A stretch of 64,000 nucleotides of DNA, taken from assembly GCA_020631855.1 (NCBI GenBank), contig JACKGU010000001.1:167601-231600 (forward strand), in the 5' to 3' direction. Positions 14,965 to 61,328 of the stretch are shown piece by piece. A program made the position numbers and the translations under genes. This DNA comes from Candidatus Nomurabacteria bacterium. Lineage in GTDB: Bacteria; Patescibacteriota; WWE3; UBA101185; UBA10185. The notes under the pieces are model-generated. The model had not been told where the DNA came from. It saw only the letters and a list, made by a program, of their open reading frames with translations, and searched no databases. How positions within the stretch are numbered: position 1 is the first letter of the stretch; each line of letters starts with the position of its first letter.

Positions 14965-15939
14965 ATGGAAAGCGGTCGCATTATAGGACGCGCTGGGAAT
15001 GAGAGAAGAGCCCCAAGTGCGGTCGTTAATGAGCGACCCACTGAGGATGCGGTAATAGCGCTAGAAAATGAAGAAGAGTCTTATAAAATTCGAGCAGCGT
15101 TTCTAACTCTATTAATAGGTGCGGTGGATTTAAAAGGCCGAACAAAGGGACCCGATACCCCGAGCATTAAGCTTAGTCGGATATTTCATAAAGTTGTAGC
15201 TTTACACCGCTTTGGTTTTACTCGAGAAGCATTCGAGCTCATTATAAGTGCCGCTATAACAAACAGCCTTTCTTGCGCTCAGGATAATAAGGAGGCGATA
15301 GTGACTAGTGCTCTAGTAAACTTTGATGCCGAGGAATTAGGGCTTCCTCCTTGGCAGGCAAAATTTTATTTGAGTGTCTGTTTTGATCTTTTGGAACAAG
15401 ATTGCCGTGTTCTCGAAGAAGGAAATACTGCAATTTTCGGCAGTAGTGAGCGACAAGCACTGGCCTTTGCCTTAAATAATAACTTAACCCCAGATTTTAT
15501 AAATTCTGCGCTAGAAGAAATTTTTTTTCCACGCCTTAGGCAAGAAGGTAGCAGTATCCTGCCCCCTGCTGATTCTCTGGGAAAGGCCTACTTCAGTGCA
15601 AGCCTGGGCCTGTACCGTATTTTTTTACATCATTATCGCGCTATAAAAAATAGCTCAGGTGGTAGCGCCCCTGTTGAGTTGGAGTCGGGTACAATAGTGC
15701 CCGCGGGTAATCCGCCTCCCTTTACTGGAGATTCTATGAGGGCTATGTTTAATAGGGTGTCTGCGCGCCTTTTGGGTATAGTTACTTGGGCCGAACAAGG
15801 CCCCCTTTCACTCCCAAGAGGTACAACACCCCCTCTGATCGGCGAAGAGAGGGGTGACCTGTATGAGGCTTGCCTTACACTAACTGATTTGTTCCCTGGC
15901 TTTGGTCGCTCAAGTCTCAGGAAAATCATAAGTCGGTAG
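14965..15939 (+). CDS. Hypothetical protein (324 aa) with compositionally atypical, GC-rich coding sequence.
   Basis: The 975-nt uninterrupted ORF is in a ~50% GC segment, against about 38–40% for neighbouring genes. It uses CGC/GGC/CCC-rich codons. No motif was recognised and the C-terminal part is Pro-rich. Confidence 0.45.
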   Translation: MESGRIIGRAGNERRAPSAVVNERPTEDAVIALENEEESYKIRAAFLTLLIGAVDLKGRTKGPDTPSIKLSRIFHKVVALHRFGFTREAFELIISAAITNSLSCAQDNKEAIVTSALVNFDAEELGLPPWQAKFYLSVCFDLLEQDCRVLEEGNTAIFGSSERQALAFALNNNLTPDFINSALEEIFFPRLRQEGSSILPPADSLGKAYFSASLGLYRIFLHHYRAIKNSSGGSAPVELESGTIVPAGNPPPFTGDSMRAMFNRVSARLLGIVTWAEQGPLSLPRGTTPPLIGEERGDLYEACLTLTDLFPGFGRSSLRKIISR

Positions 15940-31201: not shown

Positions 31202-34200
31202 TTAGGAAAGCTTTCTTCTAACTCTTATACCTGCTACTGCTGAGGTTAAGCCCAGTACAGTAAGTGCAAGGTTAGTTTCGGCTCCTGTCTCTGGAAGCTC
31301 AGTTATCTCTTTGTTTACGTAACAAACTTTTGCATCTTCGCTTCCTACCTCATCTCCGTCGTAGTAGACTTCGACTTTGTTCTTTACACACTTATCTACG
31401 TTCTCTTTGTCAAATTCAGAGTCTCTGACCTTGACTTCGATTATGAAGGTCTTGGTTTTTCCTTCTTTGAAGTTTTCCCAGTATTCAGTCAGTCCTGATC
31501 CGCCTATTTTCTTAAGTTCGTCAGGTAGGAAGTCTTCCATCTTCATGTTGTCAAGTTCGTCTTTACCTTCGTTTTTAACTCTAATTCTGAACTCTAAGAC
31601 GTCGTCTTTTTTGACATTGGTTACTTTATCTAACCATTCATCGTCGCCCTTGATTCTAACTTCTTTATCAACATCTATCTTTATTTCCTTTTCTTCTTCC
31701 TCTTCATCTTCTATTACTTTCAAGTCAAAATCAGCGTCGTCACATACCTTTTCGTCTTTAGGCATTCCGGCAACTATACATACGATGTTCTCTGAGTCTA
31801 AATTGTGACTTCCTGTATTGTCGTAGTCGACAACTGTGGACACAAAATATACTACTTTAGTTTCACCGATTTTTAATGTGCCTATATCTAAGGTACAGTC
31901 TTTTCCTGCACCTATGCCGTTGCTACATGACCAATCAAATCCGTACGCTTTACTCTTTTCTGCATTATACTCAGTATATGCAGGTACTTTGTCGCTAATT
32001 ACCACATTGGCCAATTCGGTTTCACCGGTGTTTCTTACGCTTATCTTAAAGGCTATATCGTCACCTTTTTCGTATGTAGTGTCGTCTCCGGTTGACTTAG
32101 AGATATCTATATCTTTTTTGATGTCGATTCCCGGTACAGGTACAATATCGTCATCCCAAACCAGCGTATTTGTTACGTCGTCGCAGTATACTTTTTCAAA
32201 GTCCCCTGCTACTTGATCTGTAATACATGCTTGGTTGTAGATTTCATCATCTTCAGATTTTTCGATATCCGATTTGATTTTAGCAACTACTTTTAATGTA
32301 ATTCTTCCGCCTGCATCTAAATCGAACCCGTCTGAGTCTGATCTAATAACCCCTGTAGATTCGTTGTACACAAAATCATTTCTGAAGCTCTCAGGAGATA
32401 CTGACAGAGCAACAGTAGCGTAGTCTATTTCACTAGGTACTGCGTCGTTGAAGGCAACGTCTGTTGCATCGCCCTTACCGACATTTGCAATTCTGATCTC
32501 GTATCTTATCTGTTCGCCTGGTTTGTATACTTTGTTACCATCAAGGTTGACCTTCTCTATTGTTAGTTCAGGTTCTTCTACCACTATGTCTTCCATCATG
32601 CAAAGGTAGTCTTCAGTACACTGAGGATCGCTTGCATTAAATGGGTTGCTACAATCTTGAGTTTCACCTGCAAGATTTGTAAACTCTAGGCTTGCGTGGT
32701 TAGTATACTTTACTGAATTTGCTGGGCAAATTCCATTGCTGTTGTTGTCAGGCATGTCTGTTACTTTAACCTGTGCATATATATCAAACTTAGCATCAGG
32801 CTGTAAGTCTACTGTAGTTATGTTACATACAAGCTCGCTGTTATTTGTAATAAAGTTACACTGGTTGTAGTTGAAACCATCGTAATCGGTTGTCAATTTA
32901 CCTGTGTACTCAAGTACATTGTTATCCACTTCATTTAGGTCATCGTTAATCAACATCGGGTTAGCTCTAACTACTCCTCCGTCTTGCCATGATCCAAAGT
33001 ACGCACCTTCTCCTGTGTTAGTTACACGGAATTTTATCCATGCCTTGTCGTCTACTTTGACTTGGGTAATTTCATTCTGTGAAGGTTTGTCGTTACTATC
33101 TCCATAGAATTTTTTTACTATATCAAGATCAAAGTCTTCTTCTTCAACTCTAAGCAGACAAATGTCTGTAATTGAGCATGAAGGGTCGTTGGCGTCGTCT
33201 GTACAAGTCATTGTGTCGTCGTTTAAGAATACTGTGTTAGGTACTTCGCAGTCCTCGTTTGTTAGGTATCCTTCAAGCACGTTAACTTTGAAATATACTT
33301 TGCTTGTTTCGCCTTTATCTATAGAACCTTCGAATACACAGCTGACATCCTGCCCGCTATTTGTACAAGTAAAGTCGCTGTTTTCAGGCTGATACTGCCC
33401 TTCATATCTAAAGTTATTGGCTAATGTGTCAGACAGTGTTCGTGTTTCGTTGTATACATACTGTCCCTTGGTGTTGTCCAAAGTGAATTCGACCCAAACA
33501 TTTTCGCCTTCGTAAGCTGTTTCTTTTACCTGTGAAGGGTTAGGCTGCCCGTTATTATCGGCAACAAATCTTTTTTGAACTTCGATTTCGCAAGAACCTG
33601 TGTACCAAACAAAGGCATCTTTAGCTAAACAGAAGGTAGGAACCCCGTTTGGATCCAAAGGCCAGTTTGCAGGATCAGAAGGATCTCCACCATTATCTAT
33701 TACTAAGTAGTGTTGGGTAATCATGTCGGTTGTACAGGTTGCGTTGAATATATCCATCTGTACTGTACTTCCGCATGTAAGTCCGGTTCCGGTTTCAATC
33801 TTTTTCTTTTCGTCTAATTGACCTAAGCTTAAAGATCTTCCACTTAATGCTTTATACACATAGTTAGCTGATTTTCCACAGGCTAACCAAGGGTTGCCTC
33901 CGGTGACTTCAGCATCGCAAACGTACGCATGTGCCTTTTCGTTAATGCTGCCGGCTTGGCAATAAGGTGCATTAACATCCAGTTCATATGCTGTTCCGCC
34001 TTCGTATCCTGGGAATGTATAACACTGGCCTTCCTGATTTACAGGGTAGCCTCGGTCGTTACACATAGTTTTACTTAAATCTAACCATCCCGGGTTCCAG
34101 TTGGTGGCTCTAACATCTGTGACGTCATTGAACGGAGGTATAAAGGTAATGTTATTACCGTCTACGTCGTGTGTTCCACAAACGTCTGTGAAGCCGTATT

Positions 34201-34432
34201 CCATGCTTCTCGCCAATACTGGCCCGCCTTGTGTCTGTCTTCCTCCAAAGCTTATATCTAGTGAGCTGATAAGCCCAGCAGAGTAAGCTGCGGTGGCTGA
34301 GGACACTACTGCAACAACAGCAATGACGCTCACGACAGTAGCGCGGCTAAATTTTTTACTTCTTTTTCTGTGAGTCATAGATTTGAACACAGAGAATATT
34401 TTAGAAAAAATACTTTCTTTTCTTTTATTCAT
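31202..34432 (-). CDS. Giant LPXTG-anchored cell-surface protein (1076 aa) with repeated DUF11-like beta-sandwich modules.
   Basis: The C-terminus is LPETG (nt 31283–31297), then a hydrophobic stretch, then RVRRKLS. The N-terminal signal peptide is MNKRKESIFSKIFSV...VVSVIAVVAVV. Internal modules repeat (e.g. VYKPGEQIRYEIRIANVGKGDATDVAFNDAVP and VRNTGETELANVVISDKVP). Confidence 0.8.
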   Translation of the reverse strand: MNKRKESIFSKIFSVFKSMTHRKRSKKFSRATVVSVIAVVAVVSSATAAYSAGLISSLDISFGGRQTQGGPVLARSMEYGFTDVCGTHDVDGNNITFIPPFNDVTDVRATNWNPGWLDLSKTMCNDRGYPVNQEGQCYTFPGYEGGTAYELDVNAPYCQAGSINEKAHAYVCDAEVTGGNPWLACGKSANYVYKALSGRSLSLGQLDEKKKIETGTGLTCGSTVQMDIFNATCTTDMITQHYLVIDNGGDPSDPANWPLDPNGVPTFCLAKDAFVWYTGSCEIEVQKRFVADNNGQPNPSQVKETAYEGENVWVEFTLDNTKGQYVYNETRTLSDTLANNFRYEGQYQPENSDFTCTNSGQDVSCVFEGSIDKGETSKVYFKVNVLEGYLTNEDCEVPNTVFLNDDTMTCTDDANDPSCSITDICLLRVEEEDFDLDIVKKFYGDSNDKPSQNEITQVKVDDKAWIKFRVTNTGEGAYFGSWQDGGVVRANPMLINDDLNEVDNNVLEYTGKLTTDYDGFNYNQCNFITNNSELVCNITTVDLQPDAKFDIYAQVKVTDMPDNNSNGICPANSVKYTNHASLEFTNLAGETQDCSNPFNASDPQCTEDYLCMMEDIVVEEPELTIEKVNLDGNKVYKPGEQIRYEIRIANVGKGDATDVAFNDAVPSEIDYATVALSVSPESFRNDFVYNESTGVIRSDSDGFDLDAGGRITLKVVAKIKSDIEKSEDDEIYNQACITDQVAGDFEKVYCDDVTNTLVWDDDIVPVPGIDIKKDIDISKSTGDDTTYEKGDDIAFKISVRNTGETELANVVISDKVPAYTEYNAEKSKAYGFDWSCSNGIGAGKDCTLDIGTLKIGETKVVYFVSTVVDYDNTGSHNLDSENIVCIVAGMPKDEKVCDDADFDLKVIEDEEEEEKEIKIDVDKEVRIKGDDEWLDKVTNVKKDDVLEFRIRVKNEGKDELDNMKMEDFLPDELKKIGGSGLTEYWENFKEGKTKTFIIEVKVRDSEFDKENVDKCVKNKVEVYYDGDEVGSEDAKVCYVNKEITELPETGAETNLALTVLGLTSAVAGIRVRRKLS

Positions 34433-34890
34433 TTTTTTACGTGGAGGGCAAATCCTACGTCCAAAAACTATAGACCAAAAAGGGTTATTGAAATGGGGCC
34501 TATAGTTCATATAATTTTGAACTGTTGAGATTGTATCATAGAACCCTATAGCAGTCAACTCTAAGGTATAAAGCAATTTCAACATCCCGATGTGGTCTGT
34601 TTCTCGCATTTCTTATTCAGAAATTTATTGTTATATAGTTATTCCCAACTTATTTGTAGATGTCTTTTTGGGGCTCTGTTGCAGCGTTCTCACAGATTGT
34701 CTCTCTGCGTCTAGTTCCCGGAGCTTGGCGGGCGCTTGTGGTTTTATGGCACCCCTCACCCTCGGTCTTATGGCACATATTTGAAATATTTGCTTGTAAT
34801 AATGTAGTACAGAAGTTGAACTTTTAAGTTGGGCCGGGGCACTAAGTAAGTACTTTGAACTCTTCTCTTTATGAAGTAAAATACCTCTGT

Positions 34891-37095: not shown

Positions 37096-37129
37096 TTGCT
37101 CGATCTTTTCGCAAGATAGATGATTTATG

Positions 37130-37166
37130 GGGGCCCCGATCTATGATCGGGGCCCCTCAATTTTTC
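37130..37166 (+). terminator. Rho-independent terminator after rpsR.
   Basis: GGGGCCCCGATC-TAT-GATCGGGGCCCC is a perfect 12-bp stem. It is followed by TCAATTTTTC. Confidence 0.75.
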
Positions 37167-37210
37167 TTGATTTGCTTTCAACACACAGCGTCAAATGTTA
37201 TTATTTTTAC

Positions 37211-38236
37211 ATGCCCGTTTTGTCATTCTACGAAGGCTACTCTGAGCTGACATTTGTATATTCTGAATCCGATAAATCCAAGGTGGGGAACGAGTTGTTG
37301 GAGCTTGACGCTAAGCCGGAGATCTTTAAGTTGCCCTTCGTTTACAGCGCAAATCTTTATTCCTGCTCGTTTTCAAAAGAGCAGTTTTATAAGGAAGTTT
37401 TTTCTTTGGTTTATAGTCAGTTGGGAATTACAAAAGACCAACTACCCGGTCTAGAATTTTACGCTTCCGGTTATATTAAGGTGCCTGATTCTCTTCCTCT
37501 TAAACCGAAAAAGTCCTTTTGCGTATCCGACTTTATACACGAGCCATATTTATTTGTAGGTTCGGATTTTCTAATCCAACAAGGCTGCTTTACTTCTCTT
37601 TTGCCCGTGTCCTATTTGACTCAGTACGCAAACTTCTATTCTAATTACAGTATCTATCCGGGCATGAAACTAACAGAGCCTAGAGACATTGTTTTAACAG
37701 ACCAGCTTGTAAGAGATTCTATGTATTTCTCTTCCTTATCTTCTTCTCTAAACTTGAAACCGAAAAAACCTGTAACAAAAAAGGCTGTTTTCACAGGCGA
37801 GAGGCTTTCCAACTACGAGGAAAACAAGGCCCTTTCGTTGTTACTTATGCTTGATTTGTTGATATATCCTGGTATGTATCAACTACAGCTTGATAAATCA
37901 AACCTTTTGCCGGCACTTTTTGCGTTAGATATTACCAATTTCGGCCTACTTTCAATAGGTTCCGCAATAGTATCCCCGGGTTATAACGAGGTGTTATTTA
38001 AATCTGAAGCCGCAAGCCAGCAATTTTTTGAAATTTCGGAAGATTCAATTTTTATATTGCCTCTGGATGCCGAAGAGCAGGGGGTTGTGGCGGTTAAATC
38101 GGAGTTAGGAACTATGGAATATGAAGTTAAGGGCGGCGAGGTGGGTTTGGTGTTTGACGCTCGTAGGCGAGATATGGGGCCGGTTTATAAAGATGTGTAT
38201 ATTAACATGATTGAACAAAATTTATTGAGAATATAA
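37211..38236 (+). CDS. Hypothetical protein (342 aa).
   Basis: The ORF starts after the terminator. The longer ORF-track start at 37127 lies inside the terminator stem. No motif was recognised. Confidence 0.5.
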   Translation: MPVLSFYEGYSELTFVYSESDKSKVGNELLELDAKPEIFKLPFVYSANLYSCSFSKEQFYKEVFSLVYSQLGITKDQLPGLEFYASGYIKVPDSLPLKPKKSFCVSDFIHEPYLFVGSDFLIQQGCFTSLLPVSYLTQYANFYSNYSIYPGMKLTEPRDIVLTDQLVRDSMYFSSLSSSLNLKPKKPVTKKAVFTGERLSNYEENKALSLLLMLDLLIYPGMYQLQLDKSNLLPALFALDITNFGLLSIGSAIVSPGYNEVLFKSEAASQQFFEISEDSIFILPLDAEEQGVVAVKSELGTMEYEVKGGEVGLVFDARRRDMGPVYKDVYINMIEQNLLRI

Positions 38237-38237
38237 T

Positions 38238-39230
38238 ATGGCTTATTACATACCTGTATACAGAAAAATGAACCTTCACAGAGAAAGCTTAGTAAGAAGA
38301 GAACTTCCTATTGAAGGTGATTTGATAGTGAAGGTGGGGGATTCGGTTTTGCCTTTTACGAAGATCGGCCGTGCAACCATATCGAAAGATTTTCTGGTTC
38401 TTCCTCCTAAAATAAAAATTCAGAGGTCAATGTTGCCGAAACCATTAATTTACGAAGGCGAGGTGCTCGGTAGAGCCGGCTTTAGGAGTTTTAAAGCCCC
38501 GTTCAATGGCTATTTCGAAGAAGATTCTATTAACGGCCTTGTTTACAAGAGAGAGAAGCAGGATTATTGGATGTTGGCCGGTGTTTGGGGGGTAGTTAGT
38601 GAGGTCGTTGGTGGCCGAAGTGTCACTATTAAAGCCCAAGTTATTGATATAAATTTTTCTGCCGCTTGCGGCACAGACCATATGGCCGAATTGATAGTTT
38701 TTCCAAACCCGTCAAAGCTTTTGGATTTAGAATATTTACAAAATTTTTCAAAAGGAATTAAGGGCAAGATCGTATATGTTGGTGATTTTTTACGTAAAGA
38801 GCTGGTACTCAAGGCAATTGAACTAAAGGTAGGCGCGTTGATTGGGGGCAGTATAGAGAAAGATATTTTTAACTTGGCGAAAAGCAGGGGTTTAGGAGTT
38901 GGTATAACGACCGGATTTGGCCAGCTACAAACACCAAGCAAAGTTTTTGATTTTCTTAAGACAGTCTCCAATCGACACGTTTTCATAGATGTTTCGGATG
39001 GCAAATTAACTATTCCAATTCCGTCCGAATTCAATACCTCCTCTTTTGCAGAGAATGGAGAATCTATTTGCGAGGTTAAAAAAGAGGTTCCTGTGTTAGT
39101 TTTGCAGAGCCCATACTTTGGAAGAGAGGGAAAAGTAGACGATATACAGAATGATAAAATTTATGTTAAACTCAACGAGTCAGAAGAGGTACACGAGATT
39201 AATAATTCCAACCTTCTGGCCCTCTTATAA
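38238..39230 (+). CDS. Hypothetical protein (330 aa) with N-terminal barrel-sandwich-like segments.
   Basis: It is separated by 1 nt from the upstream ORF. EGDLIVKVGDSVLPFTKIGRA resembles a lipoyl/hybrid-barrel motif. No catalytic motif was found. Confidence 0.5.
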   Translation: MAYYIPVYRKMNLHRESLVRRELPIEGDLIVKVGDSVLPFTKIGRATISKDFLVLPPKIKIQRSMLPKPLIYEGEVLGRAGFRSFKAPFNGYFEEDSINGLVYKREKQDYWMLAGVWGVVSEVVGGRSVTIKAQVIDINFSAACGTDHMAELIVFPNPSKLLDLEYLQNFSKGIKGKIVYVGDFLRKELVLKAIELKVGALIGGSIEKDIFNLAKSRGLGVGITTGFGQLQTPSKVFDFLKTVSNRHVFIDVSDGKLTIPIPSEFNTSSFAENGESICEVKKEVPVLVLQSPYFGREGKVDDIQNDKIYVKLNESEEVHEINNSNLLALL

Positions 39231-40502: not shown

Positions 40503-41645
40503 ATGGAACAAGGTTTTATTTCAAGAATAATAGGTAATTCAAAGAGGTTTATAAAGGGATTTTTCTGGTTCGGTGCATTTTTATCTATTGTTTTGGCGGC
40601 ATTTTTTTACAACAGGTCGGCGCAAAAAAGTGACCACGACTTAGAAGTTCCCGCTCGTCAAAAAATAATTTTACAAAATAAAGATGTTGAAGAAGAGTCC
40701 GCTCTAATACAAATGATAGATAAGGTCTCACCTTCTGTTGTTTCTATAGTAGTTAAAACTACCGGTTTTGACATTTTCAACGGAAGTTACTCTGTGGAAG
40801 ATGGTATTGGTACGGGTTTTATTGTTGATGAAAAGGGATTAATTGTTACAAACGATCATGTCGTTGACTCTGTCAAGTCCAACTATGCGGTTGTGACCTC
40901 TGATGGTACTACATATGATGTAAAAAGAATCAGTAAAGACCCTTACGCTGATTTGGCGATATTGGAAATAGATGCCTCCGGACTCCCGGTTGTTGAGTTA
41001 GGGGATTCTTCAATATTAAGGCTTGGTCAGACAGCTGTAGCAATAGGTAATGCACTAGGGACTTACGATAACACAGTTACTTCCGGAGTGGTTTCAGGAA
41101 TTGCCAGGCAAGTGGTTGCATCTTTAGGTTTTGGTGACAGTAAAACATACGAAGACGTTATTCAAACCGATGCGGCTTTAAACCCCGGTAATTCGGGAGG
41201 GCCACTTTTAAACTTGGAGGGGCAGGTAATTGGAATTAATGTAGCTACAATATGGGGAGCTGAAAATATCGGCTTTGCCATACCTGTAAATACTTTAAAA
41301 CCTTTACTTGAAGTTTATATGAGCGAGGGCCGTCTTATTAGGCCCTATTTAGGAGTTTCATATAACATGGTAAGTAAAAATCTTGCTGAATTAAGAGATC
41401 TTCCTGAGGGCGCTTTTATCTTATCTGTGTCTCCCAATTCCCCTGCTGAGGAAGGTGGCTTACGAAGAGGAGACATAATTATTAAAATTGATGACGTTAA
41501 CATTACGGAATCAAGCACTCTAAGCGCAGTTATCGCCAATAAGAGGGTAGGGGACAAATTAACCATTCGGGTAGTTCGTGAAGATGAGGAGCTTGAAATT
41601 TCAGTAGTTTTAGCTGAGTTTCCGGATACGTCAGTTTTTGAGTAA
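40503..41645 (+). CDS. htrA: HtrA/DegP-family serine protease with a PDZ domain.
   Basis: The trypsin-like catalytic triad context is TNDHVV, DLAILEI and GNSGGPLLN. It has a C-terminal PDZ domain. Confidence 0.85.
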   Translation: MEQGFISRIIGNSKRFIKGFFWFGAFLSIVLAAFFYNRSAQKSDHDLEVPARQKIILQNKDVEEESALIQMIDKVSPSVVSIVVKTTGFDIFNGSYSVEDGIGTGFIVDEKGLIVTNDHVVDSVKSNYAVVTSDGTTYDVKRISKDPYADLAILEIDASGLPVVELGDSSILRLGQTAVAIGNALGTYDNTVTSGVVSGIARQVVASLGFGDSKTYEDVIQTDAALNPGNSGGPLLNLEGQVIGINVATIWGAENIGFAIPVNTLKPLLEVYMSEGRLIRPYLGVSYNMVSKNLAELRDLPEGAFILSVSPNSPAEEGGLRRGDIIIKIDDVNITESSTLSAVIANKRVGDKLTIRVVREDEELEISVVLAEFPDTSVFE

Positions 41646-41765
41646 ATCGAACACTAGTTTTTTCTAAATTTTTTTACTGCAATAGAGGCGCAAACTTCAG
41701 TTTTTGGATTTAGATAAAAGTGGGTAGCAATAAAGAAGAGCCTAAGAGCTTAGATCCATTGTAAT

Positions 41766-42734
41766 TCAAGCTTTATCAAATTCAGTGGTCATTAATGTTG
41801 TTAACATGGATTTGATGTCCCCATCCATAATAGCTTCGAGGTTATGCCAGCTCTGCTTAATCCTATGATCTGTAACTCTGCTTTGTGGGAAATTATATGT
41901 CCTAATTTTTTCATGTCTTTCGCCTGTCCCAATAGACGACAGCCTTAGATCTGCCAGTTTTTGCACTCTTTGTTCTTGCATAGAAGTAAACAGCTTAGAT
42001 TCAAGCATTGTCATGGCTTTAGCCCTGTTCTTGCCTTGTGTGCGTTCTTCTTGACACTCTACTACCACTCCTGTTGGAACGTGAGTTAGTCTTACTGAAG
42101 TACTGACTTTGTTTACGTTTTGACCTCCCGAGCCTCCTGAACGGAAAAAGTCCATTTTCACGTCTTCCGGCTTTATATCTATGTTTACGTTTTTAAGTTC
42201 CGGGAGTACAGCAACCGTTGCAGTCGACGTATGTATTCTGCCTGCGCTTTCTGTTTTTGGAACCCTTTGCACCCTGTGAACCCCGGCCTCGTTAGCCAAA
42301 AGCCTATAAGCGCCTAAGCCCCGAATAGAAAATATAGCAGTCTTTATCCCTCCAACCTCGTTGTCTGAGTAAAATAATTCCTCAACTCGCCAGTTCATTC
42401 TCTCTGCGAATCGTATGTACATTCTGTAAAGGTCGTGTGCAAATAGGCCTGCTTCGTCCCCTCCTGTGCCCGATCTAATTTCTATTGTTGCAACATTTTG
42501 ATTAATTGTTTCTTGCGAATTCTCGCTTTCGGATTCTTCTTCTGCATACTCTCCTTTAAGCGAGCCAATAGAGTTGGAAATATCTTTTATTTGTTTGTAT
42601 AACGAGGACAGCTCTTCCTGATAAAGTTTTAACATTTGTTGATCTTTTTCTTGAGATAACAGAGGATTTATTTCTGAGGCACGTTTTTGCAACACTTCTT
42701 TTTCGTGCTCAAGGTTGTTTATTATTTCATCCAT
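41766..42734 (-). CDS. prfA: Peptide chain release factor 1.
   Basis: It has the GGQ motif ([12 protein letters not shown]) and the PKT (PxT) anticodon-mimic motif in [19 protein letters not shown], which identifies RF1. Confidence 0.8.
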
Positions 42735-42773
42735 ATGTGAATTATAGCAGAGAAGAGGTGCCTGTTTTTTCTT

Positions 42774-43085
42774 TTAGCTCTTTTTTGAGGCCTCTTCCAT
42801 TAGCTCTTTTAGTGTTTTTGGTTCATCTGTAACTTTCTCTTTCTCTTTTGATTTTTTATTTTTTGCGGCTGCTTTTTTCTTTTGCGATTCATCAAGCTTC
42901 TTTTGAAATTTATCTATTCTTCCTTCTGTGTCAACAAACTTCTGTTTGCCAGTATAGTATGGGTGGCAGTTACTGCAGATATCTACCTTGAAATCATCGA
43001 GCGTAGAGCTTGTTGTAAAAACAGTTCCGCAAGCACATGTAATCTTAATATTTTTATTCACCTGTGGGTGTATGTCTTTTTTCAT
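42774..43085 (-). CDS. rpmE: 50S ribosomal protein L31 with a K-rich C-terminal extension.
   Basis: [10 protein letters not shown]...CACG...[12 protein letters not shown] is the L31 zinc ribbon. Confidence 0.85.
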
Positions 43086-43110
43086 GCAAGAAGTAGTATA
43101 GCAGATTATA

Positions 43111-44928
43111 TTATTTGTTCAACCTAATTACTATCTTTCCAAGATTTCTGTCTTCAACTATGTAGAAAATTCCTTGCCTGGGTCTTGCGGATCTGCCCAC
43201 TATATGGGTGCCGGAAAATTCTGCGGTTCTTTGGGTCTTGTCTGTTTTGTTTACTACAACCATCAACTCCCCCCGCCCCGGTCTATCAGGTTCTGGAGTA
43301 TCTTTTATTTTCTTAGCTGTCTGTTGAGAAAAAACTACCACAGTACCGTCGAGATCGTAAAAGAATTTCTCTAGGGTGACTTGCGCCTCTCCAGATTCTC
43401 CTGTTCTTACAAAGCTAGCTTTCATAAATACCTCACGGTGTACCCCACAGAAGCTTGTTTCTCCTACGTGGATTCCCAATCTATTATGTGAGAAGGGGGT
43501 TTGTCTTCCTGTAATTTTAGTAGTAGCCAGATAAGTAACATCTTCGATTTCGGTTAGGAGATATTTTTTAGTTCGTCTTCCGCATAACCCCTCTATTGAA
43601 AGCCTTTGATCTACAGCCTTGTACAGCAGTAGCTCTCTAGCCTTTAACATGCCGGCGAGTAGAAATTGTTGCTCGCTATTCCCCATTTGTTGCGGGCTGT
43701 GTTTTTGTTGTAGGTCTTGTATGGTTTTATCAAGTTCTTGCAAAAAAATTTGACGAGCGGAGACGTAACTTGGTATAAGTACTCTGGCAATTGTATCGAG
43801 TGGCTCGCTCCTTCTGGGGCCTTCCGGTAACTGAAAATTTTTATGATTCTGTTGTTGTAAAATAGCTGGTTCGGTGAATAGGCTTCCAAGCCCTGCGATC
43901 ACGTTCGCAAATCTCTCCAGCACCCGTGTTTGTTCATTAACTCCATCTTCGCAAAATCTCATTATTATGGGCAGTTTACTATGTACTAGTTCGTGTATAA
44001 ATTCTTTGAGTTCTTGGTGAAGTTTCTCTCTCGGTTTTTTCCAGAGATCCACTATCGCCCCATGGGCCATTCCTGCAAAGAAACCCATATTTGTTTGTAA
44101 ACCGGCATCGTCAATAATTTTTTTAGTCGCTATAGCATTTATTGCCATTACAAGATTTCTAAGCTCTATCCCGAATACCGTTTCTGTAAAAATAACTTCC
44201 GGTTCTAAACTTTCTTCTTTTTCTATTTTTATTTTTGCAATAGCTTCCACAGGGGCGACTCTTTTTATTGGCGTGTGTGGAAGTGCTGAAGTTCGTGCCA
44301 AACTAAAACCTAAGGCAGCAGTTGCCAACGAGAATCTGAATAAGAATTCTCTTCTACCTATTGTATTCGTAGCGCAGTAAATTGGGGTTGGTATATTTGT
44401 TGCAGATAAGTCGTCATTTTTTTTTATTTCAATTAAATCTGTTCCTGCTAAGATAGCTAGTAGCAATAATTCTGTGTTTCTCCAGGGACCCATATCGCCA
44501 CCTCCTTCAGCAGCGATTCTTGCACCTTGTTTACTAAGTCCCTCGTAATAAAGCTGGGCAGCCAGGCCATCTATTCTGGCATCAAAAGCACATATTGCGC
44601 CGCCATTACGATAAAGCTCGCGAAGAAGTTCCTCGTGCTTCGTACGTTCTCTATGTGTCGATCCGTATCCGATGTTTTCTCTTCTGATTTGTGCCAGAGC
44701 ACTCCAAGCTCTCACAGTGTCTCTGAGGCCCATTCTACGTATGGTTTCTAGTTGGTTGGTTCTAAGAATAGATCCAAGAGAATATAATTCCAATTCTCCG
44801 CAAAGAAGAGAATTTATGGGATTTTCTGGATCTATGTCTAATTCCCTTAGCAATGCTGCGGTTACAGCATGATTCCAGAATTTATAATTGCAGGGTGGTT
44901 CATTTCCTGATCTTTTTTCATTAGACAT
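43111..44928 (-). CDS. Hypothetical HExxH-motif protein (605 aa) with an internal twin-arginine-like motif; GC-rich.
   Basis: HELVH at aa 312–316 is followed by Glu at +12, +16 and +22, which is a gluzincin-like arrangement. [25 protein letters not shown] at aa 190–214 resembles a Tat signal or a transmembrane anchor. Local GC is about 45–50%. Confidence 0.5.
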
Positions 44929-44963
44929 GTTTTTGTTGTTAATGAAGCCAAAATGGCTCTAGT

Positions 44964-45947
44964 TTACTTTCTGTTGGTCTCTGCTCCTACAACACCTATT
45001 ACAATTATTATTATGCCTAAAAATGCAGCCGGAGTAGGGGATTCTTGCAAAAGTACAAACGAGATAGGTATAGTAAAAAGAGGCCCTAAATAGCTGAAAA
45101 TAGCAGTATCTGCGGCTTTGGCTCTTTTTAGCCCCCATTCAAACGCTACATACGCAACAATAGAAGACAAGATAGCCATATACAAAATACCGGCTATAGG
45201 TATTATTGTTAGATTTGTAAGATCAAAGGCTTTCATATACCTATTCTCGATAAGCATTAATGGAAATATTGATACAAGGCTCACATAAAAGGTAAAACCG
45301 GTATGAAGGGTAGGGGAGTAACTTCGTGTCATTCGATTAAGCCGGAGTCTCTTTAAGATTGTTGTCAGGGTTGATGAATTTTCGCCCATGACGTGCTTGG
45401 ATACAATTATATAGGCTGTGAAAGCAACATTATAAATAAGCACTGCCAGGTTGCCTAAAACTCGAAGCCCCTGCTCTAGCTCCGTATGTTGACCTTTAAA
45501 CAGCATCGGCTCGAGCATTATTAGCAAAGTACCCAGAGTTGCAATAAAAACTCCCAGCTTTGCTTTATAGTTCAGTTTTTCGTTGTAGAAAAAATGACCC
45601 GCAGCAATAACCATAATAGGTGCAGATGTTCCTAGAATTGCAGCATCCAGAGATGTTGTGTATTTTACACCCACAAATACAAATGCCAGCGCTGTCTGTC
45701 CAAGTAAACCCAGTATTACAAGATTTTTTATATCTTTTGTTGCTATCGGAGTTTTTTTAAGTTCAACAATCATCACAGGCAACATAAGGATGCATACAAG
45801 CAGAAAGCGTAAAAATAAAAATGTAAAAACAGGTATATACTGCTCTGTTATTTTTATAATCGGAAGGGCTCCGCCCCATATTGCGGTAGCAAGTATTAAT
45901 GCTCCGTAGGCACGAAGTTTAAGGTTGTTGTGTGTTCTATTAGGCAT
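44964..45947 (-). CDS. DMT/EamA-family transporter.
   Basis: It has ten transmembrane helices and the EamA N-terminus LRAYGALILATAIWGGALPIIK. The start is at MPNRTHN. Confidence 0.65.
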   Translation of the reverse strand: MPNRTHNNLKLRAYGALILATAIWGGALPIIKITEQYIPVFTFLFLRFLLVCILMLPVMIVELKKTPIATKDIKNLVILGLLGQTALAFVFVGVKYTTSLDAAILGTSAPIMVIAAGHFFYNEKLNYKAKLGVFIATLGTLLIMLEPMLFKGQHTELEQGLRVLGNLAVLIYNVAFTAYIIVSKHVMGENSSTLTTILKRLRLNRMTRSYSPTLHTGFTFYVSLVSIFPLMLIENRYMKAFDLTNLTIIPIAGILYMAILSSIVAYVAFEWGLKRAKAADTAIFSYLGPLFTIPISFVLLQESPTPAAFLGIIIIVIGVVGAETNRK

Positions 45948-45995
45948 TGTTTTAATTATACATAAATCGAAAAAGTTATGTGATAATATATCAAT

Positions 45996-46649
45996 ATGGA
46001 AATTACATACATAGGGCATTCGTGCTTTAAAATCAAAGGAAAAAATATTTCATTAGTTATTGACCCTTACGACCCTACTATGCTTGGTTACAAATTACCG
46101 ACTCTTAGTGCTGACGCTGTTTTATTGACACACGATCATCCGGACCACGCAAATGTTCAAGGCGTGAAGGATTACAGGTTAGTTATTTCGGCTCCGGGAG
46201 AGTATGAAATTTCTGATGTTTTTGTTTATGGACTTCAAACATTTCATGATGAATCGGAAGGCTCCAAGCGAGGCAATAATACTATTTATTCAATAGAAAT
46301 AGATGATTTTAGTTTAATGCATCTTGGAGACTTGGGGCATATATTATCTGCCGAAACCTTAGAAAAGATAGGTACTGTAGATGTTTTGATGATCCCGGTG
46401 GGCGGAGTTTACACTATTGATTCTGCAGCTGCGGTAAAGGTAATTTCTTCAATAGAACCGGGGATCATTATTCCCATGCATTATCAAACAGCGGATCTAA
46501 AAATGGCCGGAGACAAATTAGACTCCTTGGATAAGTTCTTAGACGAGATGGGTATTGAAAAGCCAAGAACTGAAGGGAAGTTAAAGTTGTCATCGCGTAG
46601 CGATGTGCCGGCTGAGTCTACTGTGACTGTTCTAACCCCGGAACACTAA
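45996..46649 (+). CDS. MBL-fold metal-dependent hydrolase.
   Basis: It has the HxHxDH motif (LTHDHPDHAN). Confidence 0.7.
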   Translation: MEITYIGHSCFKIKGKNISLVIDPYDPTMLGYKLPTLSADAVLLTHDHPDHANVQGVKDYRLVISAPGEYEISDVFVYGLQTFHDESEGSKRGNNTIYSIEIDDFSLMHLGDLGHILSAETLEKIGTVDVLMIPVGGVYTIDSAAAVKVISSIEPGIIIPMHYQTADLKMAGDKLDSLDKFLDEMGIEKPRTEGKLKLSSRSDVPAESTVTVLTPEH

Positions 46650-46681
46650 AAGTATTCGTAGTTTTCGTGAGAGGTTAATTT

Positions 46682-48037
46682 ATGGCAAGCTCTAATAAAC
46701 ACAAAGCAAGTGACCCAGTAAATATGGGAGTTCCTCCTCATGATCTTGATACAGAAAAATCTGTTTTAGGGGCGTTATTGCTGGATCAAGATGCAATTGT
46801 TAAAGTTGTTGAATTTTTAAGACCCTCTAATTTTTATAAAGAAGCCCACGCTAATATTTATCAGGCTATACTAAACTTATACGAAAAAAGAGATCCGGCC
46901 GATCTTATAACTGTTCCGAACGAGCTTAAAAAAATGAAACTGCTAGAAGCTTCAGGAGGCGTGTCTTACTTAACAGATCTTGTAAACTCTGTTCCTACTG
47001 CGGCGAACATAGAGCACTATGCTCAGTTAATTTCAGAGTATTCTATAAAGAGATCTTTGCTTTCTGTGTCTGGAGAGATAGGAACACTTGTGTTTTCCGA
47101 ACCCGATGTTGAAGAGCTTTTAGACAAATCCGAACAACTTTTGTTTTCAGTTTCACAAGACCGCCTTCATCAAGATTTTTTTTCAGTCAAAGATATTTTG
47201 GAAATTACTTTCGAAAGATTAGATGAGTTGAGTAAAACCAGAGGTGCTTTGCGTGGTGTTTCAACCGGGCTGCCAAACCTTGACAAGATGCTATCAGGTT
47301 TAAGAGAAGGAGAGTTAATTATTTTAGCTGCACGTCCGTCTGTAGGAAAATCAAGTTTGGCTATTAATATTGCCCAGCACGCGGCGACAAAAAATAAAAC
47401 GGGAGTTGTAATTTTTTCTTTAGAAATGGGTAAAGAGGCAATTGTTGACCGCATGGTTTCTACACAAGGAGATATTGATAACTGGCGAATTGCCACCGGT
47501 AATCTTGAAGAAGAGGATTTTGAAAAATATTCTATAGCTTCGGGGGAGCTTGCTGAGGCGCCTTTGCTGATAGACGACACTCCTGGGATGAGCGTGTTGG
47601 AAATGAGAACCAAAGCCCGCAGGCTAAGTTTGGAGAGAGACATTGGTCTTATAATAATTGACTACCTACAGCTTATTAAAGCACCTTCAGCCGAGAGCCG
47701 AGTTCAAGAGGTATCTAAGATTTCTCAGGCTTTAAAAAATCTCGCCAGAGAGCTAAATGTTCCTGTTCTTGCTTTATCTCAGCTTTCAAGGGCTGTCGAA
47801 CAGCGTGGAGGCGACAAGCGGCCCCAACTAAGTGACCTTAGAGACTCAGGTTCTATTGAACAAGATGCAGATGTCGTTATGTTTTTGTATCGACCTGACG
47901 AAGAGGATCGTTCGTCGCTTAATCTAATAGTTGCAAAGCACCGTAATGGACCTACCGGAGAGCTTGATCTGTTCTTCAGAGGTGATAGAACGAAGTTTTT
48001 TGAAGTAACAAGGCAGAAAGACGAAGCTCAAAGCTAA
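46682..48037 (+). CDS. dnaB: Replicative DNA helicase DnaB.
   Basis: It has the DnaB N-terminal domain (LGALLLD), Walker A ARPSVGKSS, Walker B IIIDYLQL and an arginine finger. Confidence 0.9.
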   Translation: MASSNKHKASDPVNMGVPPHDLDTEKSVLGALLLDQDAIVKVVEFLRPSNFYKEAHANIYQAILNLYEKRDPADLITVPNELKKMKLLEASGGVSYLTDLVNSVPTAANIEHYAQLISEYSIKRSLLSVSGEIGTLVFSEPDVEELLDKSEQLLFSVSQDRLHQDFFSVKDILEITFERLDELSKTRGALRGVSTGLPNLDKMLSGLREGELIILAARPSVGKSSLAINIAQHAATKNKTGVVIFSLEMGKEAIVDRMVSTQGDIDNWRIATGNLEEEDFEKYSIASGELAEAPLLIDDTPGMSVLEMRTKARRLSLERDIGLIIIDYLQLIKAPSAESRVQEVSKISQALKNLARELNVPVLALSQLSRAVEQRGGDKRPQLSDLRDSGSIEQDADVVMFLYRPDEEDRSSLNLIVAKHRNGPTGELDLFFRGDRTKFFEVTRQKDEAQS

Positions 48038-58250: not shown

Positions 58251-59147
58251 ATGGATCCCTTAACTCATTTAAAGAACGAAGTATCAAGACTCTTTATTGA
58301 AAGAAGGAAGAGTTTAGGCTATAAGGGAGCCCTTCTACAGTTTTTTAATGATCTTATAAACAAGAGGTCCATTTATATCGTGGCCTCTATATTAACTCCC
58401 GTAACATTATTTTTTGCTTCGCGGTACGCAACAACTGTAAGTTCGCTGATAATTATCTCCTTCGCACTTACGGCAACGATACTGGTAGCGATTGTGGCAC
58501 TCGCCTTGCTCAGCAGGGTGAGGGGATTCGCTTTCATATACTTTTTGATACCGGTTTCCTATTTGGTATTAGGGGTTCTATTCTCTTTATATTTTTTCCC
58601 TAATTTAGGATATTTAATAAAAATGGCATCTTTTATTGGTCTTGGTTTTGTTGTCTATGCTCTTTCTCTTGTCAATAATATTTTTGTTGTGGTCGAAGAA
58701 AAGCAGTCTGTTATTCCGCTATACAGCGCCGGACTGGCTTGGGTTCAAATTATTCTCATTTTAATCGCTATACCTTTTTATTCGGGAATATATAAAGTAC
58801 CCGCAAATTTTGTTGTACAGAACATTTTGTTATTTTTTTCAACCTTTTCTTTTTATATATACATGCATTGGGCGGTTAATTTAGATAAGGACCTAATTAA
58901 AACCCCACTTAAAGAGAAGGGAAGTTTAGCTTTTGTATTATCGTTGCTTCCGGTCGTTTTAAATACCGGCCTGCTATTTTACCCGGTAGAAGCTTTTCTA
59001 AAGGGTATTTTTAGCTCCACAGTGTTGTTGTCCGGCTTAATTTATATTCAAGCACACTATAAAAATAGAATAAATTCTAAACTTTTGTATAATTATTTTG
59101 TCTTAGGTAGCATTTTTTATATAATTCTTTTTATATTTAAACCTTGA
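58251..59147 (+). CDS. Hypothetical polytopic membrane protein.
   Basis: It has about eight hydrophobic helices and no motif. It sits where ruvA would be expected. Confidence 0.45.
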   Translation: MDPLTHLKNEVSRLFIERRKSLGYKGALLQFFNDLINKRSIYIVASILTPVTLFFASRYATTVSSLIIISFALTATILVAIVALALLSRVRGFAFIYFLIPVSYLVLGVLFSLYFFPNLGYLIKMASFIGLGFVVYALSLVNNIFVVVEEKQSVIPLYSAGLAWVQIILILIAIPFYSGIYKVPANFVVQNILLFFSTFSFYIYMHWAVNLDKDLIKTPLKEKGSLAFVLSLLPVVLNTGLLFYPVEAFLKGIFSSTVLLSGLIYIQAHYKNRINSKLLYNYFVLGSIFYIILFIFKP

Positions 59148-59427
59148 TTATCCTTTTAATACGGCCTTTAGATCAGGGAACAGGGAACTATATTCTAATG
59201 TAGATTGCACATTTGTCATAAACCCGATCACTATAGGGTAGCATCTGCTAACATTTTTCAAAAACCCCAAATAACTATAGGGTTATATATTTTAATAAAA
59301 AACACAAAATAATGAAGAAAGTTTTATATAAAAGTTGTTTTTAGCTTGTTGTTGAGCTTTAAAATGTATTTTACAGTTGAAAATAGTAAAAGATCTTTAC
59401 CCCAAAGAGAAGAGGGAGGGGGACGAT

Positions 59428-59502
59428 TGTCATACTTACCCTATAGTATGTTTGTCATACTTTTCTTTTTGTACGTTTGTCATACTTTTTTAAAGCGGTG
59501 CA
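59428..59502 (+). repeat. Three direct repeats (iteron-like) of TTGTCATACTT at exact 25-bp spacing.
   Basis: The copies start at 59428, 59453 and 59478. They lie within a 1.15 kb AT-rich gene-free region. Confidence 0.6.
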
Positions 59503-60308
59503 ATTATTGTATTGTGGATAATTCGGGTGGTCGTTTGTAGTTTTTGTTTGAGGGCCTGTTTTAAAAAATATAAATGAATAATAAATAGATCTATTTATAT
59601 ATAAAATGGTCAATTATTGTTTTCAATATTACTTTTAGATCTTTACACTCCCCATTTATCGTTTGTCTGGGTGCGTTAATAGTGCTTTTTACTTAAACAA
59701 GGTTTAACTAGATACCCTACGTCGTTAAACATACATTATACGACGTTACTCAAAGGTCTCAACTTGTGCCCTTTCTTAGCTTTTTAACGGTGTTATTTCT
59801 ACTAAATTCATTTTTAAATTTTTGCATTAATAAATACCATCGTAACTTTCCTATTACAATTTCCTTTTTAATTTTTATATTTTATTTTAAATTACGTTAT
59901 ACTTATTTATATTATTTTCCCCGCTTTTTTGCCGCCTTTGTTTTATCTACCCCCTCTTCCTAGTTTGCTTGCTGTTTTCTTACTTTTCGCGTAAAAGTAT
60001 ATCTTTATTTCTGCAACGGGAAGACCCCGTGCTTATCTCGTGGATGAAAGCGCGAGCTTTCAACCGCAAAAAAGAAGAGTCCGGAGACTTTAGTTCGCGG
60101 AGTCTTTATTCTTGGCTTTGTTAAGGCCTAAAATGGCTGTTTGGGCCTATTTTGACTTCTAAGGCATTTTTCCAAAAAAGTTGAGTTGCATATCTTTGAA
60201 TCTGGCTTCCTTGAGGATTCGGGCCAGGGAGATGGTGCTCATTGCAATATTGTTCGCTCTTAGTTAAGTATATTTCTGCTAATGTCGTTAAAGTGTTAAA
60301 ATTAGATA

Positions 60309-61328
60309 ATGAATAATTTCAAACATTATGTGTCGAACTATTTAGAGTACTGTGAAATAGAAAAAAATCTTTCTCAGAACACTATTAAAATGTACGACTT
60401 TTATTTAAATGATTATTTAACATGGGCCCAAGGATATTTAGGTAAGGATGAAATTCATATAGAAGACATTACATACGAAGTTGTAAAGAAATACAGGCTT
60501 TTTTTAAATAGAAGAAAAAGCACGAAATCGCATGAAGAATTCAAGAAATCGACCCAAAAGACTTTTTTGGTTGCTCTAAGGTCCTTCCTTAAGTATTTAA
60601 TAGTTGAGGAAAATTTGGCTGTTTTGTCGCCGGATCAAATAATTTTAGGTAAGCCGGAACCCTCGATTCCTAAAGTTTTGGATGAGACTCAGTTAGTGAG
60701 GTTGCTGGACGTGCAAAATCTAAGTAAGAAGTCGGGAATTAGAGACAGGGCTATACTTGAGACTCTTTTTAGCACAGGTTTGCGGGTGGGTGAGCTTGTG
60801 GCGTTGAACAGAGACGAAGTTAACACGGATTCAGGAGAATTTACGGTCATTGGTAAAGGCAAGAAGGTTCGAACAGTTTATCTAAGCGAGAATGCTAAAG
60901 TTTGGATACGTCGTTATTTAGATACGCGACGCGATGACTACGCTCCCCTTTTTTTGCGTTATTCCGGAAAAAAAATGGAACCGTCCGATATTGAAGGCGA
61001 ATCTTTAAGATTAACTGCCAGAAGTGTACAGCGTTTAGTTAAAAAATATGTTTTACGTTCGGGCTTAGCAGTTGATGCAACCCCTCATACTTTGAGGCAC
61101 ACTTTTGCCACCGGCCTATTGCAGGAAGGCGCCGACCTTAGAAGTGTTCAGGAGTTACTTGGTCATAGTAATGTTTCTACAACTCAAATCTATACCCATG
61201 TAACAAATCGCCAGCTTAAAGAAGCGCATAAAAAGTACCATAAAGATATTACAACAACTGCAGATTCTAAAAATGATTATGTTGAAAATGATCCTCGTCG
61301 AATAAAATCGGAAGAAGAGATAGAGTAA
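60309..61328 (+). CDS. Tyrosine recombinase (XerC/XerD-like integrase).
   Basis: It has an N-terminal SAM-like domain and a catalytic C-terminus: LRVGELVAL (the R), HTLRHTFATGLL (HxxR), and LLGHSNVSTTQIYTHV (H and Y). Confidence 0.85.
   Translation: MNNFKHYVSNYLEYCEIEKNLSQNTIKMYDFYLNDYLTWAQGYLGKDEIHIEDITYEVVKKYRLFLNRRKSTKSHEEFKKSTQKTFLVALRSFLKYLIVEENLAVLSPDQIILGKPEPSIPKVLDETQLVRLLDVQNLSKKSGIRDRAILETLFSTGLRVGELVALNRDEVNTDSGEFTVIGKGKKVRTVYLSENAKVWIRRYLDTRRDDYAPLFLRYSGKKMEPSDIEGESLRLTARSVQRLVKKYVLRSGLAVDATPHTLRHTFATGLLQEGADLRSVQELLGHSNVSTTQIYTHVTNRQLKEAHKKYHKDITTTADSKNDYVENDPRRIKSEEEIE

Follow-up and report, generated by a model that had tools for sequence, protein, structure and literature searches.

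The open reading frame (ORF) at positions 43111..44928 (stop codon included) of a 64,000-nucleotide stretch of Candidatus Nomurabacteria DNA raises the question of what kind of protein it encodes and whether that protein is native to its host. The stretch, which is part of contig JACKGU010000001.1, is referred to below as the window. The ORF is on the minus strand, starts with ATG and specifies a product of 605 aa, termed P0001 here, which NCBI lists as a "hypothetical protein" (locus tag H6802_01890, Candidatus Nomurabacteria metagenome-assembled genome (MAG) GCA_020631795.1). An earlier note had delimited the ORF correctly and saw in it a possible membrane-anchored zinc metallopeptidase of foreign origin. 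The present analysis replaces that call, which proved false, with a defined group of invariant residues and a topology that can be tested. P0001 is a native member of a very small, previously undescribed family, and it is tentatively proposed to carry an internal signal-anchor of the twin-arginine translocation (Tat) type that displays the C-terminal domain outside the cell, a reading that we regard as plausible, if somewhat short of probable.

A small family of collinear proteins

An exhaustive phmmer search of 1.84 billion cluster representatives returned only three relatives of P0001, with E values from 1.6e-7 to 2.7e-4. These were P0002 (627 aa, E 1.6e-7), P0003 (584 aa, E 5e-6) and P0004 (630 aa, E 2.7e-4). 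A 643-aa form of P0003, designated P0007, was obtained from its 90% cluster. The fifth member, P0008 (L020:395-2248), came from a pattern scan of metagenome contigs, while a scan of genome contigs yielded nothing but P0003's own Saccharibacteria MAG. The family consists of P0001 and four distant relatives of 584 to 643 aa, which share 17 to 25% identity with P0001 in a five-sequence alignment (A5). Scans of all five members against Pfam and NCBIfam gave no informative family match; a Pfam match was likewise missing for 4 of 7 other window ORFs that were checked.

The MAG that encodes P0003 bears the name "uncultured Candidatus Saccharibacteria bacterium", and that of P0001 is named Nomurabacteria. 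The genes for P0002, P0004 and P0008 are on unbinned contigs of 34 to 42% GC, two of which carry housekeeping or cell-envelope neighbours; the 2-kb contig of P0004 has no informative neighbour. So far, the family is found solely in low-GC genomes resembling those of the candidate phyla radiation (CPR). No gene neighbourhood was conserved among the homologues, the flanking genes being pheS and rplT for P0002, gyrB and a DHH gene for P0003, and EamA and rpmE for P0001. The gyrB gene next to P0003 in the Saccharibacteria contig (L013:4426-7707) contains an intein (PF14890).

Pairwise BLASTP comparisons gave single collinear high-scoring segment pairs that extended from the N-terminal domain through the central hydrophobic region into the C-terminal domain, for example P0001 17-443 against P0007 50-454 (E 1e-18) and P0004 37-617 against P0007 26-605 (E 6e-27). 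All members share the same order of elements: a soluble N-terminal domain of 110 to 190 aa, a hydrophobic helix (helix 1), the motif (S/T/G)-R-R-x-(F/L/A)-L, a weakly hydrophobic helix (helix 2), and a C-terminal domain of about 390 aa. Since the four homologues are collinear within a single ORF, P0001 is the product of one gene and not of a fusion, and the N-terminal domain never occurred as a separate gene among them. The suggestion of two fused genes, or of a fusion created by annotation, is thereby refuted. The alternative outline of a single protein with an N-terminal domain, a membrane segment and a C-terminal domain stands, without the protease identity that had been given to the last of these.

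The internal twin-arginine segment

The centre of P0001 contains the sequence TIGRREFLF at aa 189-197 (44338..44364, minus strand), in which R192, R193 and L196 are invariant in A5. Across the family, the motif reads GRREFLF, SRRNALL, SRRELLQ (SRKEFLQ in P0003), SRRKFLG and TRREFLK, with Ser, Thr or Gly at position -1 and Phe, Leu or Ala at position +2, matching the Tat consensus S/T-R-R-x-F-L-K. The expected number of RR-x-F-L occurrences in P0001 by chance is 0.016, and, apart from the P0001 motif, no RR-x-hydrophobic-hydrophobic site in the window has a hydrophobic stretch behind it. As it is both rare in the window and conserved among the homologues, the segment goes beyond chance. It had already been recognized as twin-arginine-like in the earlier note, where its numbering (188-216) was off by one; the correct residues are 189-217. 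The two arginines are at residues 192-193 in P0001 and at 180-199 in the homologues, well beyond the N-terminal ~35 residues, and the nearest in-frame starts in P0001 are M146 and L155 (TTG).

Uncharged residues, rich in Gly, Ala and Ser, come after the motif: 13 of them in P0001 (between R198 and R212) and 17 to 28 in the homologues. In every member, this uncharged run leads into a Pro-rich stretch. In P0001, this weakly hydrophobic helix 2, or h-region, spans aa 195-211 (44296..44346, minus strand), precedes the Pro-rich linker LPHTP, and is the proposed uncleaved signal-anchor. The other hydrophobic helix is found 8 to 28 residues upstream of the motif in every member. In P0001, helix 1 (aa 152-166; 44431..44475, minus strand) is short and flanked by charges, with 13 hydrophobic residues between E152 and E166, whereas in the four homologues it forms a credible transmembrane (TM) segment of 19 to 21 residues. 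Helix 1 of P0001 aside, each protein has its most hydrophobic 19-residue windows at the two helices. Kyte-Doolittle values were 1.1 to 1.7 for helix 2 and 1.6 to 2.6 for helix 1 of the four homologues; helix 2, which is the last hydrophobic segment, was the less hydrophobic of the two in 3 of 5 members. Crude Hessa insertion-energy sums, calculated with no position terms, were positive for helix 2 in all five members (+3 to +5.6), and for helix 1 ranged from -1.5 to +5 in the homologues against +10 in P0001.

The loop between the helices carries a net charge of +3 to +5 in the homologues and +1 in P0001, and the residues just before helix 1 are neutral or negative overall. After helix 2, basic residues are present in P0001 (R212, K222 and R223), P0007 and P0004, while in P0002 and P0008 the net charge within 20 residues is negative. 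A5 shows no conserved small-x-small cleavage site downstream of helix 2, so that an uncleaved anchor appears likelier than a cleaved signal. The best match in PDB profile searches, which was not significant, was to an RR-helix segment of PsaH (E 0.28). A second RR/RK-x-F-(M/L) sequence was noticed at the extreme N terminus of P0007 (residues 5-10, SRRDFM) and P0004 (residues 8-13, SRKQFL). No hydrophobic region follows these N-terminal copies, which may be relics or may offer the factor that recognizes the internal motif a second place to bind.

Predicted topology and route of insertion

In membrane proteins that depend on both Sec and Tat, the Tat-dependent last TM domain has the arginine pair directly before it, weak hydrophobicity and basic residues after it, and these proteins include an N-out family (Tooke et al. 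2017, PMC5449189). P0001 resembles them in that its internal twin-arginine stands directly before the last, weakly hydrophobic segment, which is followed by basic residues and then by a large globular C-terminal domain, with no conserved cleavage site. It differs in having a single preceding helix, itself degenerate and placed after a conserved soluble domain of 110 to 190 aa, and in having neither a recognizable cofactor domain nor any sequence relationship to those proteins; Tat dependence is only predicted for it. In comparison with classical Tat signals and signal-anchors (TIGR01409 and PF10518), the motif, an h-region with 13 or more uncharged residues and a basic residue beyond it are shared. 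The P0001 segment, in contrast, is at residues 189-217 rather than in the first ~35, one family variant has RK, and matches to the TAT_signal hidden Markov models were weak, with PF10518 matching two of five members (best E 0.16), TIGR01409 matching one (E 0.037), and P0001 matched by neither.

The positive-inside rule is well established. Applied to the basic loop between the helices, it would place the twin-arginine loop in the cytoplasm and the C-terminal domain outside. The motif would thus stay at the cytoplasmic face, and helix 2 would act as an internal, uncleaved signal-anchor with N-in/C-out orientation, which TatC would recognize provided that the organism encodes a Tat system. The C-terminal domain of ~390 aa would be exported and held outside the membrane via the Pro-rich linker. 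The chemistry of the protein may be hydrolase-like. The position of the N-terminal domain would depend on helix 1. If the helix is peripheral, as is likely in P0001 given its degenerate form, the domain is probably cytoplasmic; if both helices form a true hairpin, as is possible in the homologues, whose helix 1 resembles a real TM segment, the domain would be outside and the protein N-out/C-out. This model was derived from motif conservation and physicochemical reasoning. If it is correct, the family would bring to the few known proteins with internal Tat signals a new architecture, composed of a large soluble N-terminal domain, one helix, the arginine pair and an anchor, and P0001 would be a surface-exposed protein of episymbiotic bacteria with minimal genomes.

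Some Paceibacteria and Saccharimonadia have been reported to possess TatA and TatC (PMC9166423). Several points weigh against Tat-dependent anchoring. A complete Tat system is missing in most of the Saccharibacteria that have been analysed (PMC6031116), and a search with E. coli queries found no TatA/TatC-like ORF in the 64 kb of the window, which belongs to a contig of at least 630 kb, or in the sequences flanking the homologues, a share of the genomes too small to be informative. The motif is ~190 residues from the N terminus with only one hydrophobic helix before it, and were that helix a true TM segment, a large N-terminal domain would have to be exported without a signal, for which no precedent was found. 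The near-identical variant P0003 has RK in place of RR. With Kyte-Doolittle values as marginal as those given above, helix 2 could lie buried within a soluble fold. A cofactor-binding domain is the usual reason for Tat export, and none was detectable here. Finally, AlphaFold2 models reached a pLDDT of only 34 with the single sequence and 38 with the five-sequence alignment, and give no check on topology or on clustering of the invariant residues.

Some of the same observations would be explained if the hairpin, or a single span, were inserted by Sec/YidC with no involvement of Tat, the arginines serving as positive-inside determinants and the likeness to Tat signals being incidental. Tat is patchy in the CPR and was not found in the available sequence; the loop is generally basic, with Lys as well as Arg, like any cytoplasmic loop; P0003 has RK; and the TAT_signal matches (E 0.037 to 0.16) are weak and confined to a minority of members. 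Positive-inside orientation, however, needs neither an Arg-Arg pair nor Ser/Thr at -1 and Phe/Leu-Leu at +2/+3, and both the pair and its flanks have been conserved among proteins that are only 17 to 25% identical. The hydrophobicity of helix 2 is also low, as in Tat h-regions rather than Sec anchors. Insertion by Sec/YidC alone was therefore considered somewhat unlikely, and the Tat-type signal-anchor was retained as the preferred interpretation.

Invariant residues and comparison with the TIKI superfamily

The N-terminal soluble domain of P0001 (aa 1-145; 44494..44928, minus strand) was defined from A5 and the collinear BLASTP pairs. Its invariant columns are H20 (within FWNH), G44-E45 (within LCGE), N85, H98 and D116. 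Those of the C-terminal domain are R257, A262, N264, G286 and H289, plus others including T334, A391 and L399. The best-conserved core of this domain is at aa 248-290 (44059..44187, minus strand), where the alignment shows T248, R257-N-x-x-M-A262-x-N264 and G286-x-x-H289-G. The pattern suggests that H20, E45, N85, H98, D116, R257, N264 and H289 form a candidate catalytic, metal-binding or ligand-binding site, of which HELVH is not a part.

One candidate for the underlying fold was the TIKI superfamily, which has a parallel-sheet core with two His and two Glu plus an Arg (PMC6254334). The N- and C-terminal halves of P0001 would then be one alpha/beta hydrolase domain of the TIKI/TraB/GumN/ChaN/erythromycin-esterase type, split by the membrane hairpin, which we judge distinctly unlikely. 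Both halves would in that case be on the same side of the membrane, making the protein a membrane-tethered protease or esterase. The idea is prompted by four strand-like hydrophobic segments, each ending in an invariant polar residue (FWNH20, LCGE45, AFD116 and FAGxxH289); the low-confidence model (pLDDT <50) has strands at residues 14-17, 40-44 and 111-114. Furthermore, R257-N-x-x-M-A is followed 32 residues on by G-x-x-H, much as "RN..w" precedes "VGalHL" in TraB proteins such as YbaP. By motif, the resemblance to the superfamily (YbaP, Vibrio RRSP; PMC6254334) consists of R-(N/D)-x-x-M-A, then ~30 residues, a strand and G-x-x-H, with a His and a Glu at strand ends ~25 residues apart upstream and with large insertions tolerated between the halves. 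The spacing H20-25-E45...R257-32-H289 is like H3902-28-E3930...R4001-29-H4030 of RRSP (PMC6254334).

For comparison, a nine-sequence profile was built from E. coli YbaP and eight plasmid-borne TraB/GumN genes, and hhalign was run in local, global and low-mact modes with full-length (A5), half and concatenated-core alignments. The C-terminal core aligned to the TraB/GumN profile with RN..MA and G..H in register with RN..w and VGalHL; this match, the best obtained, had P = 0.13 and a probability of 0.5%. The relationship was not recovered with the full-length, N-half or concatenated-core alignments against YbaP/TraB/GumN. No TIKI-superfamily match was found for any of the five members in Pfam, NCBIfam or PDB at E<=10, and Foldseek matches to the low-confidence model of P0001 were all noise (E>=0.3). 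The P0001 family also differs from the superfamily in that its first motif does not have the GxxH/ExH form, the second acidic residue would have to be D116, and a membrane hairpin would split the putative domain. Membership in TIKI/TraB is thus not supported by these comparisons and remains a lead.

Two other assignments were considered and rejected. In place of the tandem 33-residue repeats of ankyrin proteins, only a single stretch, residues 97-116 (H-x-E-x-L-x-x-L-x-x-x-G-x-x-I-x-x-x-D), matches a designed ankyrin, with a spurious E value of 0.003 that sums four weak repeat matches, and Pfam Ank matched none of the five members. A metallophosphoesterase reading was dropped, there being no supporting profile or neighbourhood.

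A possible internal start and a hypothetical mid-protein signal

Another reading has the ORF give two products, the full-length protein and a 460-aa form that would begin at M146 and start directly with helix 1. As stated in the earlier note, M146 is the only nearby in-frame ATG, being the sole one between aa 120 and 195. It is preceded, after a 6-nt gap, by the Shine-Dalgarno (SD)-like sequence AAGGAGGTG (44491..44507, minus strand, including the ATG), whose GGAGG core is 7 nt before the start codon in a perfect SD arrangement. The 9-mer is unique in the window, and GGAGG-N4-9-ATG occurs only nine times on both strands of the 64 kb, one of these being the start of the SSB gene. Against a second product, SD sequences are used at only 1 to 3 of 22 gene starts (window 41600-46700 and contig L001), and the homologues have neither a start codon nor an SD sequence at the equivalent place. 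The N-terminal domain is moreover conserved and collinear in all members, and the SD-like sequence may merely encode E-G-G. The site is a possible, unconserved start, and a two-product gene was considered highly improbable.

At many genes, among them prfA and those for the EamA and MBL-fold proteins, a TATAAT-like box stands only 6 to 12 nt before the ATG, pointing to mRNAs with no leader or a very short one in this Nomurabacteria genome. The SSB gene, by contrast, does have an SD sequence (AAGGAGGTCAA-ATG).

A further variant would make the entire hairpin (helix 1, twin-arginine loop and helix 2) a mid-protein Tat signal, the N- and C-terminal halves being folded together in the cytoplasm as a single catalytic domain and translocated together to give an N-out/C-out protein whose hairpin stays behind in the membrane. 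We regard this as a long shot. If true, it would extend Tat targeting beyond signals at the N terminus or the last TM domain, in bacteria with minimal genomes.

The HELVH motif

The zinc metallopeptidase proposal was based on HELVH at aa 312-316 (43981..43995, minus strand) and on Glu residues said to follow at +12, +16 and +22. The motif and the Glu residues at +16 and +22 are indeed present; the residue at +12 is Asp, and a Glu is found at +11 (counted from the second His, E327, D328, E332 and E338). A gluzincin-type enzyme using HELVH and a downstream Glu can nevertheless hardly be what this gene, supposedly acquired horizontally, encodes, as the motif and its acidic residues occur in P0001 alone. 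The positions equivalent to HELVH in the four homologues read RQIVN, MEFFG, HNILS and EKLFS, and the four acidic residues are in a variable, gapped stretch of A5 with no invariant column. HExxH is expected by chance 0.027 times in a protein of the size and composition of P0001, and is present in 3 of 65 window ORFs of >=100 aa. HELVH is accordingly regarded as a chance occurrence within a variable helical segment.

Database comparisons gave the same result. Searches of P0001 against Pfam, NCBIfam, PHROGs and PADLOC returned zero matches at E <= 10, and PDB searches by phmmer and with profiles from the full-length, N-core and C-core alignments returned only noise and no peptidase. With the motif unconserved and at chance level, no peptidase family or PDB match, and a native composition, the zincin/gluzincin identity was rejected. 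The analogy to anti-sigma or site-1 proteases, offered by the earlier note on grounds of topology, was abandoned as well, because no sigma factor gene is nearby and no neighbourhood is conserved. P0001 resembles zincins and site-1/anti-sigma proteases in having one HExxH with nearby acidic residues and a membrane-associated architecture; it differs in that the motif is unconserved, in the lack of any family or structure match, and in having neither a sigma nor an anti-sigma context.

Integrity, composition and surroundings of the gene

The exact protein was found on 17 contigs from samples in NCBI, ENA, Logan and JGI, and the DNA of the gene was identical in all 10 places returned among them, on independently assembled contigs. 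An indel or frameshift artefact around 44350-44500, which the earlier note had named as a point to check, is thereby excluded. One further Logan contig, L024 (SRR17907852), reached via the adjacent L31 gene, lacks 1 nt in a run of six G (gene nucleotides 1654-1659, window 43270-43275, L024:1149), which truncates the protein at about residue 552. This is probably a homopolymer assembly error, though slippage-prone variation at the run may also be its source. The run is in the C-terminal part of the protein (aa 480-605; 43114..43491, minus strand), which is poorly conserved and beta-rich in the low-confidence model.

The codon positions of the ORF have GC fractions of 0.52 (GC1), 0.40 (GC2) and 0.33 (GC3), and this descending order is the pattern of a real coding region in a low-GC genome. 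An atypically high GC content of about 45 to 50% had been reported and taken to suggest horizontal acquisition. The actual value is 41.4%, compared with 39.0% for the whole window and 39.3 ± 2.2% for 49 non-overlapping window genes (z = +1.0); 48% is reached solely in the block encoding aa 51-150. GC3 was 33.1%, compared with 35.6 ± 4.0% for the window genes, and the synonymous-codon-usage distance of the ORF to the rest of the window genes was equally ordinary (z = +0.5). With a GC content close to that of the window genes and typical codon usage, there is no sign of foreign origin. No relatives of the protein were found by tblastn in phage and plasmid collections or by a search of viral contigs, and no mobile-element gene is adjacent to the ORF.

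The flanking genes are on the same strand. An EamA-family transporter gene is upstream, separated by a 35-bp gap, and rpmE and prfA are downstream, with gaps of 25 bp and 39 bp. Genes for HtrA-like and S41 peptidases, dnaB and an MBL-fold gene are also near, and of these neighbours EamA, rpmE, prfA and dnaB are housekeeping genes. The ORF is a genuine, native, vertically inherited gene. A promoter-like site overlaps its 3' end (TTGAAC-16 nt-TATACT, with TG upstream of the second hexamer; 43095..43122, minus strand); by consensus match only, it is positioned to drive the downstream rpmE (L31) gene.

Other features of the window

A tyrosine recombinase gene is present at 60309-61325 (plus strand; Phage_integrase PF00589, E 4e-42), ~15 kb from the 605-aa ORF, and could be XerC/D or mark the edge of an integrated element. 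Immediately upstream of it, window positions 59001-60000 form an AT-rich dip of 29% GC. The highest GC content of any ORF in the window (46.4%) belongs to a 324-aa ORF with no Pfam match at 14965-15936 (plus strand), which fits the description "compositionally atypical" better than the 605-aa ORF does. Two adjoining ORFs of ~340 and ~330 aa at 37127-39227 (plus strand), also with no Pfam match, are next to the S41 (Tsp-like) and HtrA-like PDZ protease genes. At 31205-34609 (minus strand), a surface protein of 1135 aa is encoded, with DUF11/CLIPPER repeats and an LPXTG cell-wall anchor motif; the codon-usage distance of its gene is among the largest in the window.

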